Shown one piece after another: positions 8,521 through 15,394 of a stretch of 64,000 nucleotides of DNA. Where the stretch lies: assembly GCA_964016885.1 (NCBI GenBank), contig OZ024740.1, forward strand, positions 116,746,001 through 116,810,000, given 5' to 3'. Position numbers and translations under genes: made by a program. This DNA comes from Eledone cirrhosa (taxonomy: Eukaryota). Each line of letters opens with the position of its first letter. Within the stretch, counting starts at the first letter, position 1. The notes beneath the pieces were generated by a model, which did not search any database, was not told the origin of the DNA, and saw only the letters and a program-made list of their open reading frames with translations.

Positions 8521-8724
8521 TATGTATGTATGTATGTATGTATGTATGTATGTATGTATGTATGTATGTATGTATGTATGTATGTATGTATGTATGTATG
8601 TATGTATGCATGCATGTATGTATGTATGTATGTATGTATGTATGTATGTATGTATGTATGTATGTATGTATGTATGTATGTATGTATGTATGTATGCATG
8701 TATGTATGTATGTATCTATGTATG
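8521..8724. repeat. (TATG)n microsatellite hosting RLE and RTE retrotransposons; further tracts at 11381-11452, 11665-11730, 14106-14261 and 14903-15135
   Basis: Direct inspection. Confidence 0.97.
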
Positions 8725-9243
8725 TTCTTCTGGTTTTATAATTTCACAAATTTTTTCAAAAAAGAGAGAGAGTCGGTTTCTAACATAGACACAAAACTCT
8801 CTCATTGGAATTTACACAACATCAACTAGGTAGATTATGTATGCTTGCATGCATGTGTAGATATGATTGTTATTGTATGTGTGGATGTGTATGTTTTGAG
8901 TTGTATGTGTGCATGTGTATATGCTTTGCATCTGTACATGTGTATATGCAGTTATTAGATGCAACATTTTTGGAATGTTTTACATATTTTTACTGTTCCA
9001 TTAATGGATTCTACTTGTAATTTTCTAACTAGTTGTGTTCTTTCTGTTCCTGTGAAGCCTAGCTTCTCAAGATTTGTATTGAGGCAGTTACTAACATACC
9101 CCAGTGCCCCAATAATCACAGGCATACATCTGAAGGTGTAATCAGGGTGGAGTATCTGCAGATTTCTCATCAGTTCTGCATAAATATTCTCCTTTTCGCT
9201 AATCTTTGATATTATATTGGCATCTGCTGGGCAGCTAATTTCC
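8725..9243 (-). mobile_element. R4/Dong-clade RLE non-LTR retrotransposon, family A, 5'-truncated 3' end
   Basis: Minus-strand peptide EISCPADAN...MRNLQILHPDYTFRCMPVIIGALGYV...VKICKTFQ (RLE C-terminus); 3' UTR ends AAAACCAGAAGAA(CATA)n. Confidence 0.85.
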
Positions 9244-9255
9244 TATGTATGTATG

Positions 9256-11380
9256 TTATCTCTTTCTCTTAATTTCGAGTATATTTATTTGACCGGCTAC
9301 CTTCCTGGTGGCATGGTTGTAAAAGAAAAGAAATTGTCATCCCTTGAATCGCAAGAATGTTTTGCAAATTTTGAAGGTGCCAGCTATCGCAGCCATTTGT
9401 AGACTATGAATTAGGGAGCTGCGCTCTTTGTCCACAAATCCAAGTTCAGTCATACTTTGGTCCAAGCGGGTTGGTATATAACCCGTAGCTCCAATAATGA
9501 TGGGTATGAAGCTAAAGGTGTATCTTGGATACTGGATTTGTAAACTCCTCATCAATGGTCCGTACATGTCCTCCTTCTCCTGTATTTTTCTGACAACGTT
9601 TACATCAAGTGGGCAGCTGATCTCCACAACAGAACATGTTTTTAATGTGTGGTCACAAACAACAATATCAGGCCGGTTGTGCTTTAATTTGGTGGCAGTT
9701 TTTATTTTCAGGTTCTACCAGTATTCCTTAGTGCCATCTGTCTCAATATATTCTTCCTCGTTTGTTGTTAATTTTGTTTTCCGAAGTGCGTTCCAAATGG
9801 TTCTAGCTATCCCATCGTGTCTCATGGGGAGGTAGTAGCGAGATGACATTCTTTCGCAGCTGGCAACAATGTGGCTTACATCCTCGATCTTTGTTTTGCA
9901 TAGCCTACATTTATTGTCAGCTGATGGCCCTCCCCGTTTTGTGCAGCAGATATTTGGTAGGGAGTTCTTGTTCCTGTATTGCATAGAGATATCCCTCAAG
10001 GTGTGATGTCATAAACTTGTCGGAAACTCCATGCCAGGCTTTTTGAGTGGTTTATCCCCTCTATGGTCTGTGTTTTACGTCTCAAGTATCCATGCACAAC
10101 TTTTTCTGTAAATTGGTCAATTTTTTCATCTTGTTTGAACATTGAATAGGATCTTCCAATTTCTCTGGGTGAGAGATTTATATCAGGCTTTATTCCATAT
10201 CTCTCCTCCAGATCAGTGGCTATTCTAATGATATTTTTTTTTCATGCTCATAAACCTGGGCAAGATGGTTGCCAACCTTTTTCCTCTGATGAAGATGTTG
10301 CTTCAGTGTTACTATCCGGATCTCATATGATGTTAATATGGATTTTAGACCCCCGTCCACCTTCCTTGCGTGAGAAGTATAGCCTATCCACATCACCATT
10401 GATGTTAAAGTTCCCAGTAACACTGATAAGTTTGCGAGTTCTAACATCCATCTCACTTAGTTCTTGCAATGACCAGTTCAGCAGGCCAAATGTTGGCGTT
10501 AGAATTGGCACAGCATAAGTATTGTGGGCAATGTATTTGTTGTACGCTGACAGTTCTGATGACCATATTTTCTTTACTCTTCTGAGGTATTCAGTTCTGG
10601 TTCTCTCCTTATTTATGGGTCCATCATATCTGACATTCTCATCCTGTCCAAGATATCTGTAGTTGTCACCTGACTGTAGAGGTTGTATTTCAGGCCGTTC
10701 ATCTCTAGATTTCTAGAGGAGGGCACAGCTCTTCCACGTTTTACTGCCAAATATGCACACTTGGACTCACCAAATTTCATTTTGATGTCTGTTGAGGTCC
10801 AATTGTTTCTTGATGCCATTGATATTTGACCCATACAACTTCAGGTCATCAACAAACAAAAGATGGGAGATACTTCTGGACCTACTTCTTTGTCCACCTT
10901 GTTTCCTGAGTAGGTACGATAGTGGATTTAGTGAGAGAACGAAGAGTAGCACTGACAAGCTATCACCCTGAAAGATGCCCTTCTGGTAATGTATCTTATC
11001 AGTCTTAACTTGCTCCTTCTCACCTCTAAGGATCAAATTGGTGTACCAGTTCTTGGTCAGACGTTCAACAGCAGCTACCAGTGGTTGTGGGACTTTGGCT
11101 AACTGTAAGACCTTAACAATCCACCCATGAGGTACACTATCAAATGCCTTTTGATAGTCCGGCCACACCACAGTCATGTTTCTGCGATTCTTTGTTGTTT
11201 TTTCTTGAATCATTTTATTAGTTAGTAGGTGATCTATGCAACCCCACACCTCCCTCTTTCCACCAGCTTGCTCAGGTGTTATGATGTTGTTGGTAGCACA
11301 GTGATCCTGTAAGAACAGGTTAAGGCACACAGTATATAATTTATACATGATGTTTTGGCAGGCTATTGGGCGGTAATTTT
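9256..11380 (-). mobile_element. R4/Dong-clade RLE non-LTR retrotransposon, family B, 5'-truncated and frameshifted RT-CCHC-RLE
   Basis: NYRPIACQN, DYQKAFDSVPH, QGDSLS, LLFVDDLKLY (RT); CRLCKTKIEDVSHIVASC zinc finger; RHD, PDI and EISCP RLE motifs; 3' end AAGAGAAAGAGATAA(CATA)n. Confidence 0.92.
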
Positions 11381-11452
11381 TATGTATGTATGTATGTATG
11401 TATGTATGTATGTATGTATGTATGTATGTATGTATGTATGTATGTATGTATG

Positions 11453-11664
11453 TTCTTCTGGTTTTATAATTTCACAAATTTTTTCCCAAAAGAGAGAGAG
11501 TCGGTTTCTAACATAGACATAAGACTCTCTCATTGGAATTTACACTACATCAACTAGGTAGATTATGTATGCTTGCATGCATGTGTAGATATGAATGTTA
11601 TTCTATGTGTGGATGTATATGTTTTGAGTTGTATGTGTGCATGTGTATATGCTTTGTATCTGTA
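11453..11664 (-). mobile_element. R4-clade family A, 3' UTR-only insertion
   Basis: Highly similar to 8725-8935; (TATG)n on both sides. Confidence 0.85.
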
Positions 11665-13201: not shown

Positions 13202-14105
13202 GCTATCGAAACCAAGGTGAAAGTGTATCTGACTTGTGTCATCTACTCTTTGCTTTATGCCTGTGAAACGTGGGTCATACAGAAAGCACCTCAAGGAACT
13301 GGAGAGATTTCACCAACAATCTCTTCGTAAGTTACTTGGGGTGCGATGGAAAATGTTCATCAGTGATTTGGAAGTTCTCGAACGGAGCAGATGTGTGACT
13401 ATAGAGAGCATGATCTTTCGGCACCGGTTGAGGTGGTGTGGACACGTGGTCCAGATGTCTGATGATCGCATTCCAAAACAACTTCTCTACGGAGAACTAT
13501 GTGAAGGAAGGCGACCACCACACAAACTAAAAATGCGGTATCGGGACTTTGTCAGGGGCACCTTAGCTTGTGCTGTAATTTCATCTGACAAATGGGAGAA
13601 AATGGCTGAGGAGCGAGTGAAGTGGAGACATTTGATCAAGTCAGGTAGTGAACACTTTGAAACCCGTCGGAGAGAACACCTTACACTGAAAAGGAAGGTA
13701 AGGAAAGGAGACTGTTCTGAACTGCCTGCTGTTGAACATCATCTGGTTTGCCAGCTCTGTGGTCGAGTCTGCCTGAGTAAAGCTGGTTTGACTAGACGTG
13801 AACAAAGTCATATCAGTAGACCTCATGTAGATTATGTTCTGAAAGGTGTAAGGAATGTGGTAAGGAATGTGCTAGCATGGGAGGTCTCAAAAGACACACG
13901 AGAACACACAGCCAGAACAAAGCAATGGAAAGTCTCAGAGGAGCCTACAGTTGCCATATATGTGTCAGAGGGTGCAAGTCTTTGGCTGGTTTAAAGAGCC
14001 ACATTCGTGCCTTACATTTTTTGAGCATTTTACTTTGGCGATAGCAATGCTCGAACACGTTTACAGCCATCATAATGTATATATGCACGAAATCAAGTTG
14101 CAGCC
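13202..14105 (+). mobile_element. 5'-truncated RTE-clade LINE (thumb and C-terminus) with three C2H2-type fingers and a (TATG)n tail
   Basis: [58 protein letters not shown] are typical RTE motifs. Confidence 0.88.
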
Positions 14106-14261
14106 ATGTATGTATGTATGTATGTATGTATGTATGTATGTATGTATGTATGTATGTATGTATGTATGTATGTATGTATGTATGTATGTATGTATGTATG
14201 TGTGTGGTGTATGTATGTATGTATGTATGTATGTATGTATGTATGTATGTATGTATGTATG

Positions 14262-14902
14262 TTCTTCTGGTTTTATAATTTCACGAAGTTTTCCAATAGA
14301 GAGAGAGAGTCGGTTTCTAACATAGACACAAGACTCTCTCATTGGAATTTTCACAACATCAACTAGGTAGATATGTATGTATGTATGCATGCATGTGTAG
14401 ATATGGATGTTATTGTATGTGTGGGTGTGTATGTTTTGAGTTGTATGTGTGCATGTGTATATGCTTTGTATCTGTACATGTTTATATGCAGTTATTAGAT
14501 GCAACATTTTTGGAATGTTTTACATATTTTTACTGTTCCATTAATGGATTGTACTTGTAGTTTCCTAACTAGTTGTGTTCTTTCTGTTCCTGTGAAGCCT
14601 AGCTTCTCAAGATTTGTATTGTGGCAGTTACTAACATATCCCAGTGCCCCAACAGGCATAAATCTGAAGGTGTAATCAGGGTGGCGTATCTGCAGATTTC
14701 TCATCAGTTCTGCATAAATATTCTCCTTTTCACTAATCTTTGATATTATATTGGCATCTGTTGGGCAGCTAATTTCCACTACTGTGCATGTTTTCTTCTC
14801 CCTGTCCCATATCATAATATCTGGTCTGTTATGCCTGCATTTTATTGGGGTTTTTACTGGAACATTCCACCAGTACTCTTTCATATTATGTACATGGATA
14901 TC
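14262..14902 (-). mobile_element. R4-clade family A, 5'-truncated RLE end
   Basis: EYWWNVPVKT..KCRHNRPDIMIWDREKKTCTVVEISCP..KENIYAEL; same 3' UTR as 8725. Confidence 0.9.
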
Positions 14903-14980
14903 ATGTATGTATGTATGTATGTATGTATGTATGTATGTATGTATGTATGTATGTATGTATGTATGTATGTACGTATGTAC

Positions 14981-15058
14981 GTTCAGCGCATCGGTAGGGG
15001 TTCTCCTACATGGATATAAAGTAGTGGCCGTACTCGAAAACGAGTTGGCAGCCACCAT
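14981..15058 (+). mobile_element. Short 3' terminus of another RTE-like family inside (TATG)n
   Basis: Ends CTCGAAAACGAGTTGGCAGCCACC(ATGT)n, resembling the TTGCAGCC(ATGT)n end at 14105. Confidence 0.5.
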
Positions 15059-15394
15059 GTATGTATGTATGTATGTATGTATGTATGTATGTATGTATGT
15101 ATGTATGTATGTATGTATGTATGTATGTATGTATGTGCGTCTGTGTGTCTCCAAATCAACAAAGAAAATCTAGACGTAGTCAGTATATGGTGTGACAGTT
15201 CCAGTAATAGGCCTCACGTCAATACAACGCTACATGCAATCAGAATACGCCGAGATTGTCCCAGCAATAGGTCTCACGCCAACACAAGGCCACACGCAGT
15301 CAGTATACGTACACGGGCACACACAAGCCACCACACTGAAGTGATGAGTGTCATTGATATGGAAATACACAATTTCAGAAATTTTATAATTTTA

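Follow-up and report, generated by a model that had tools for sequence, protein, structure and literature searches.

How can one tetranucleotide microsatellite come to carry insertions of two unrelated groups of retrotransposons that lack long terminal repeats (non-LTR elements), each group on its own strand? The question is raised by a nest of elements at positions 8521–15136 of a 64,000-nucleotide stretch of microsatellite-rich DNA from Eledone cirrhosa (contig OZ024740.1, positions 116,746,001 to 116,810,000; the whole stretch is called the window below). The (CATA)n/(TATG)n tracts of this nest enclose R4/Dong-type copies, which have a restriction-like endonuclease (RLE) and lie on the minus strand, and 3′ ends of RTE-like elements, whose relatives have an apurinic/apyrimidinic endonuclease (APE), on the plus strand. 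A preliminary description of the window had proposed a new tetranucleotide specificity, with the two nuclease types converging on opposite strands of one repeat.

The explanation favoured here is that the microsatellite is a recurrent landing site for both groups, on opposite strands, by the steps set out below; we consider this probable, with considerable room for doubt. The firmer result is an R4 lineage that targets a tetranucleotide; the orientation bias of the RTE ends is more surprising and thinner.

Anatomy of the nest

The nest was resolved by direct reading, self-BLAST and translation. It contains four R4/Dong-type copies of two families, all 5′-truncated and all on the minus strand, and each has at least three CATA units at both junctions (4/4); the earlier report of four RLE-type, (CATA)n-flanked insertions is thus confirmed. 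The phase of the junction with the repeat is the same for both families (...A|ACATACATA). The (TAA)n target of Dong proper flanks none of the four. Two tracts (11661–11752 and 14903–14979), both situated 5′ of elements, serve no element as a tail and are therefore older than the insertions. The features are as follows, with strand given for the elements.

8521–8725: (TATG)n tract that flanks family 1 copy 1 on its 3′ side (51 copies, 97% matches)
8726–9243, minus: R4/Dong-type family 1 copy 1, 5′-truncated; RLE C-terminus and 3′ untranslated region (UTR); 52–60% to full-length relatives
9244–9256: (TATG)n, 13 bp, separating family 1 copy 1 from family 2
9257–11380, minus: R4/Dong-type family 2, 5′-truncated; reverse transcriptase (RT), CCHC knuckle, RHD and PD-type RLE (RVT_1 E 4e-19, translation)
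11381–11453: (TATG)n tract (18 copies, 100%)
11454–11660, minus: family 1 copy 2, 3′ UTR only (95.7% to copy 1)
11661–11871: (TATG)n, then a degenerate opposite-sense tract; 5′ flank of family 1 copy 2
11885–12839: unrelated sequence of about 1 kb, dividing the nest into two sub-nests
12840–13201: mixed (ATGT)n/(AT)n tract with ATGTATAT at its end; RTE1 5′ flank
13202–14074, plus: RTE1, 5′-truncated; has the thumb region, C2H2 fingers at the C-terminus and a terminus whose CAT-type tail is short
14086–14105, plus: RTE1b, 20-bp RTE-type terminus (18/20 identical to the terminus of RTE3 plus the bases after it, E 0.046; identity weak at this short length)
14106–14262: (ATGT)n tract that separates RTE1b from family 1 copy 3, the two being tail-to-tail (39 copies, 97%)
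14263–14902, minus: family 1 copy 3; RLE with HNRPD motif, frame open to the stop, 3′ UTR
14903–14979: (ATGT)n tract, 5′ of both family 1 copy 3 and RTE2 (head-to-head)
14980–15056, plus: RTE2, a non-coding terminus of RTE type, 77 bp long and with a hairpin (80% over 45 nt to the RTE3 end, E 0.001)
15057–15136: (ATGT)n tract (20 copies, 100%)
35374–35628, minus: RTE3, outside the nest; comprises the final residues of the C2H2 fingers and the terminus, whose short CAT tail is followed by ATGTATAT
35629–35713: (ATAC)n tract, which in the sense of RTE3 reads (ATGT)n; RTE3 5′ flank (21 copies, 87%)

Between the sub-nests, 12060–12440 holds short degenerate 16-bp repeats in inverted arrangement, possibly a foldback or miniature inverted-repeat element remnant.

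The R4/Dong-type families

Within their reach, the minus-strand copies carry the RT, CCHC knuckle, RHD and HNRPD-type RLE. The non-LTR RT domain is present in family 2 (PF00078, E 4e-19), the family 1 copies being truncated below it; the CCHC knuckle, RH motif and PD-(D/E)..K RLE are all readable in family 2, and family 1 copy 3 can be read from the PD motif on (RLE motif definitions: PMC4838377). Family 2 contains several frameshifts and stops, and its main pieces are 52–59% identical to the related protein P0003. The 5′ half is missing from the window copies; in relatives, the N-terminal finger pattern was absent from all nine checked, APE matched none of five, and a Pfam search of five gave no match to the SANT/Myb-like domain described at the N-terminus of the R4/Dong clade (PMC7998251).

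The family 1 copies are 94.6–95.7% identical to one another; family 2 and family 1 share 68% of DNA positions over 222 coding bases and about 50% in protein. The 3′ UTR of family 1 (8835–8950 and the equivalents in copies 2 and 3) includes a degenerate stretch, rich in CA/TA and similar to the target repeat, that differs in length between copies and in reads and is followed by a GAGAGAG/CTCTCTC stem. Folding of the 3′ UTRs is weak (z of −1.4 to −2.6 for R4 ends and of +0.3 to −2.8 for RTE ends, with −2.45 for the RTE2 hairpin) and is not evidence of function.

Relatives and position of the lineage

Relatives came from a metagenome scan (the best 80 of 375) and one viral-collection locus, 81 in total. 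The C-terminus is reached in 31 of these, 27 outside the close group around the window families and 4 inside it. Outside, the next repeat is of the TAA class at 17 loci and another trinucleotide at 4, with poly-A at 1; another 4 have nothing before the contig end, and L071 has a TAA-like run in degenerate form together with 16 bp of ATAC. None of the four inside loci has a TAA repeat. L003 begins (1–62) with (TACT)n that carries TACA units and ends in CATA, and L005 ends (4651–4694) in (CTTA)n. Read on the same strand, the repeat beside each of them is (CTTA)n, and at L003 it includes some CATA units. At the Dong-like relatives L030, L064, L032 and L063 the 3′ ends show (CAA)n or (ATG)n instead of (TAA)n, either as drifted tails or as further target variants.

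Two RT trees were computed, one of 113 rows, from the 65 of 82 loci with enough coverage plus proteins, and one of 42 chosen rows under a mixture model with bootstrap and with TAA labels set by hand. Family 2, L003 and L005 fall in one 21-row clade on a long stem (support 97/99), from which every TAA-labelled locus is excluded (0/22 in the larger tree and 0/16 in the smaller). In a 49-row RLE tree, family 1 falls in the same clade as family 2. The nearest row to family 2 is a homologue from Argonauta hians (65%; the only organism-named entry among 120 matches listed), in keeping with an octopod host, and the lineage nearest to the clade is the (TAA)n-flanked Dong-like group. The family 2 RT scores at least 170 bits against Dong-like relatives, compared with 66 against R2. 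Placed in this way beside Dong-like loci, the window families very likely belong to the R4 clade. By target they are not Dong proper, though they work like Dong. Targeting of the tetranucleotide (CWTA)n seems to be a mark of the whole lineage; the evidence for this trait comes from two families in the window and two contigs of relatives, most rows of the clade being proteins without visible flanks.

Viral contigs gave no match to the RLE or RTE alignments and one locus for the full R4 alignment. Contigs of prokaryote genomes gave 13 loci at 23–33% identity, none with a tetranucleotide tract; one (L084) begins with (TAA)n. These 13 retrotransposon RT loci (L082–L094) stand in bacterial-titled records and probably reflect eukaryotic contamination of those assemblies. 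A look-up in the Atlas returned RT clusters only.

Termini and flanks of the RTE ends

Three RTE-like 3′ ends lie on the plus strand of the nest, in keeping with the two or more reported earlier, but a fourth, RTE3, lies on the minus strand 20 kb outside it; there, both the RTE orientation and the flank are repeated. RTE1 is 57% identical to P0121, in which one open reading frame (ORF) encodes APE, RT and C-terminal C2H2 fingers. APE and RT share one ORF in both full-length relatives scanned (P0121 and P0126); the window copies are truncated, without the APE domain. We assign these elements to RTE putatively, from their architecture and from sequence motifs, the window copies lacking the RT. 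RTE3 matches P0122 (52% over 29 residues, E 0.046) and the RTE1 end (79% over 47 nt, E 9e-5), and RTE2 could instead be the end of an RTE-dependent short interspersed element (SINE). The four termini differ by about 20% and therefore represent more than one family. An old RT fragment at 37957–38568 (minus strand, ends not found) is 28% identical to RTE-like proteins.

The ends have a short 3′ UTR with a microsatellite-like tail of 0–2 CAT-type units. RTE1 ends in ACAGCC-ATCATA-ATGTATAT and RTE3 in GCAACC-ATCATC-ATGTATAT, and 5′ of RTE3 its sense strand has an (ATGT)n tract; ATGTATAT is found on both sides of RTE1 and of RTE3. Its occurrences before the RTE1 5′ end (13194–13201) and after its 3′ end (14075–14082) are possibly an 8-bp target site duplication (TSD), to judge from the repeated letters; at RTE1b and RTE2 no TSD can be read. 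The earlier reading of (ATGT)n as simply the tail of the long RTE was discarded: the (ATGT)n at 14106 follows the separate 20-bp terminus at 14086–14105.

All four termini run into ATGTAT, against none of 11 other matches to the terminal motif. Outside the nest, ATGTAT makes up 0.14% of hexamers and ATATAT 2.4%, which is 17 times commoner; 0.08% of positions there have three same-strand ATGT units just upstream. The claim that each insertion has the repeat on both sides holds for the R4 copies but not for the RTE ends under a strict test (three perfect ATGT units, required within 16 nt on the upstream side and within 24 nt on the downstream side): none of the four passes on both sides, two passing upstream only and two downstream only. 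The tract upstream of RTE2 comprises 69 bp of ATGT, with two ACGT variants as its last units. A scan for RTE termini with loose, fuzzy matching returned 41 matches; most are chance, and the counts exclude them. No joint P value is given, because nested insertions are not independent.

Reads from other genomes

Reads of 4 sequencing runs, out of 15 listed, were compared with window positions 8716–11392 at 88% likeness; the RTE ends lie outside that stretch. In raw run X13, (TGTA)n follows the family 2 end in 2026 reads, which agree at 0.86 over 30 letters and have a median of 119 loose letters beyond that end. Five listed junctions lead from an internal family 1 position (8969, 8997, 9010, 9019 or 9091) to TATG and another 3′ end; these are further nests with other breakpoints. 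Reads also continue at 9243, in family 1 copy 1, into sequence seen in copy 3, and read depth along family 2 declines from 3′ to 5′, as expected of 5′ truncation. Molecule ends sit at GCATGC and AATT sites, and the library looks like a two-enzyme digest. One loose end, which lies at 9022 on an AATT site and has an agreement of 0.34, is probably a ligation product of the library and was left out of account. Summed contig depth is not taken as a copy number.

Proposed mechanism

In target-primed reverse transcription (TPRT), the TATG strand supplies the primer for an element that reads (CATA)n, and the CATA strand for one that reads (ATGT)n; the two groups therefore use opposite strands. The R4/Dong-type lineage would target (CWTA)n in place of the (TAA)n of Dong: its RLE would nick the TATG strand, and its RNA would end in (CAUA)n. 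Each insertion would leave the repeat on both sides, and thus a new target, so that nests build up. Target choice is probably directed by the protein, because target and phase are kept across families 50% apart and relatives use a one-base variant; pairing by the RNA tail may contribute as well.

For the RTE elements, the APE would nick a TpA step on the CATA strand and produce a primer ending ...ACAT-3′, which could pair with the AUG of an RNA ending in (CAU)n or AUGU. A nick on the TATG strand would leave ...ATGT-3′, which cannot pair with a (CAU)n tail. A weakly specific APE together with tail pairing would account for both site and orientation. RTE tails have been proposed to steer cleavage or priming (PMC6007223), and Bov-B sites begin at T|A (PMC13295347).

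This picture is complicated by several points that weigh against it. As regards the reads, the 2026 of X13 mostly end at one restriction site, so that they count reads and not loci, and the library appears to select GCATGC sites and hence to favour TATG-derived flanks. The five junctions have one or two start points where given, and the junction evidence is drawn from subsets of the joints (15 out of 430), the filled joints (12 out of 218) and the loose ends (22 out of 3193). Four of the loose ends listed for run X2 (8968, 9000, 9163 and 9195) are not repeat. Among the relatives, the repeat is present in only two of the four clade loci that reach the C-terminus (L002 and L004 have none before their contigs end), the (CTTA)n of L005 sits 1065 bp beyond the coding end, and the ATAC run of L071, a locus outside the close group, lies 144 bp downstream. 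The flank counts cover the window, the metagenome loci and the reads. NeSL, HERO and CRE lie outside the comparison, and the trees hold no named R4, Dong or Rex6 sequence; of the placement in a tree with R4, Dong and Rex6 envisaged in the preliminary description, the grouping beside (TAA)n-flanked Dong-like loci, in a separate clade, was obtained. The RTE case comprises two independent loci only, and RTE1b and RTE2 are too short for sure identification. The position of RTE3 beside its tract was noticed before any scan was made, the four ends themselves supplied the terminal motif, and the ATGTAT that follows them may be partly encoded by the elements.

Alternative explanations

Convergence of the nucleases in the strict sense, with an RTE APE that is itself specific for the CATA strand whatever the RNA tail, seems unlikely to us. 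It would fit the joining of all four ends to ATGTAT in spite of the excess of ATATAT, the involvement of more than one RTE family, and the precedent of Waldo, an APE-type element specific for ACAY (PMC3812793). However, RTE sites have been described as not sequence-specific (PMC2887409), and among APE clades only Tx1 and R1 are said to have site-specific elements (PMC13295347); in the window, RTE1 and RTE3 sit at the degenerate end of their tracts, the tail already supplies the matching bases, and every copy lacks the APE domain. What stands of the convergence originally proposed is the opposite orientation of the RTE ends, including that at the locus outside the nest; for the rest, pairing of tail and primer would suffice. 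That the R4 targeting is real and the RTE ends are passengers, with (ATGT) as their own tail and a passive build-up in AT-rich microsatellite regions, is improbable. Slippage of RTE tails does yield microsatellites (PMC2887409), an octopus RTE with a microsatellite 3′ UTR has been described (PMC9115989), and three of the four ends share one nest, besides their failure in the strict test. Yet ATGT tracts lie on the same strand upstream of RTE1, RTE2 and RTE3, and 5′ flanks cannot be tails; moreover, the independent RTE3 site has to be set against the base rate of 0.08%.

The array might also have arisen without any sequence preference, through a few template jumps between RNA tails or through TATG tracts that recombined or were mis-assembled with one another. 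It is true that copy 1, family 2 and copy 2 follow one another head-to-tail with a single tract between each, the 5′ junction of copy 2 has a 4-nt microhomology, and 8716–11392 was never spanned whole by a single read or contig. The outermost 5′ flanks are nevertheless still (CATA)n, the elements around 14903–14979 are arranged head-to-head, the reads contain similar nests with other breakpoints, and the (CTTA)n relatives follow the same logic; we regard this origin as very improbable.

The recurrent landing site used by both groups thus remains the preferred explanation. A wider version of it is held only tentatively, as rather less than an even prospect: a widespread and so far undescribed R4 lineage on (CWTA)n, octopod RTE elements that are orientation-specific on the same repeat, by RNA-tail-guided priming or by their own nuclease, and a Tx1-like group on (ATCT)n would together partition tetranucleotides among the clades of long interspersed elements (LINEs) that amplify them.

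Other features of the window

A second nest (17478–30705) contains five L1/Tx1-like 3′ ends, all on the plus strand and each followed by (ATCT)n; they are preceded by (ATCT)n (four) or (ATCA)n (one). One copy has an open 1172-residue frame with APE, RT and zf-RVT (26858–30376). The Tx1 label is a putative one, taken from architecture, and (ATCT)n is not among the Tx1 targets in the available text of PMC4494074.

A degenerate coding-like piece at 460–963 (minus strand) adjoins (TCT)n/(GAA)n tracts; by its motifs it is a putative Penelope-like piece. A 140-bp repeat occurs at 1583–1720, 31781–31922 and 51958–52099 (93–96% identical, either orientation, (AT)n on both sides). One tRNA-like SINE family is present in many copies, some of them tandem (34735–35165, 43993–44194, 50261–50648, 55533–55700, 58469–58917, 59711–59897 and 61602–61787).

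Comparison with known systems

Dong, of the R4 clade (Bombyx Dong, DongAg and DongBg), resembles the window families in its RT, CCHC and RLE, in the microsatellite on both sides, in its fixed orientation and in its 5′ truncation. It differs in target, which is (TAA)n in most insects, molluscs and cnidarians (PMC7998251; PMC3812793), in contrast to (CATA)n here and (CTTA)n in relatives; the window lineage also forms a separate, long-stemmed branch. Rex6, which may have a (CTA)n target, could be related to this lineage.

In octopus, five Dong-R4 and 13 RTE families have been described as abundant and recently active (PMC13282606), and the two groups are known and active there (see also PMC9115989 and PMC10294476); these are probably the same elements as in the window. 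No insertion target is given for them in the available text of PMC13282606, where the word 'target' occurs 0 times in the main text. Reports of a tetranucleotide-targeting R4 or a repeat-targeting RTE were likewise not found in the literature available (cf. PMC4640811, PMC7599744, PMC3774820, PMC5035012), although Repbase or surveys of RLE targets may list them.

Bov-B and plant RTE elements share the short microsatellite-like tail, a TSD that starts from T|A and a tail matching the first target bases; unlike the window ends, which are found at one microsatellite in one orientation, they use dispersed sites, with a published microhomology of one or two bases in animals (PMC6007223; PMC13295347). 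The Tx1-clade families Kibi, Koshi and crocodilian Tx1 also target microsatellites, including (TTCC)n and (TTTC)n (PMC4494074); they differ in clade and repeat, and bear mainly on the neighbouring (ATCT)n nest.

The TAA, CATA and CTTA systems offer natural pairs for mapping how R4-type RLE elements, themselves of interest as tools for insertion, choose their targets, and orientation in a strand-asymmetric repeat gives a clean read-out of steering by RTE RNA tails. Part of the microsatellite load is suggested to be both target and product of LINEs, with consequences for marker design and repeat annotation.

The proposed tetranucleotide specificity is supported for the R4/Dong-type elements and seems to extend to their (CTTA)n relatives, but the target repeat as such is not new. 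Waldo, an insect element of the R1 clade with an APE, has the same repeat class (ACAT) among its listed ACAY targets (PMC3812793); the minus-strand elements of the window differ from it in carrying an RLE, and those on the plus strand match RTE-like proteins. Microsatellite targeting is known, and so is (ACAT)n as a Waldo target; the novelty is a variant within the R4 lineage, not a new kind of targeting.

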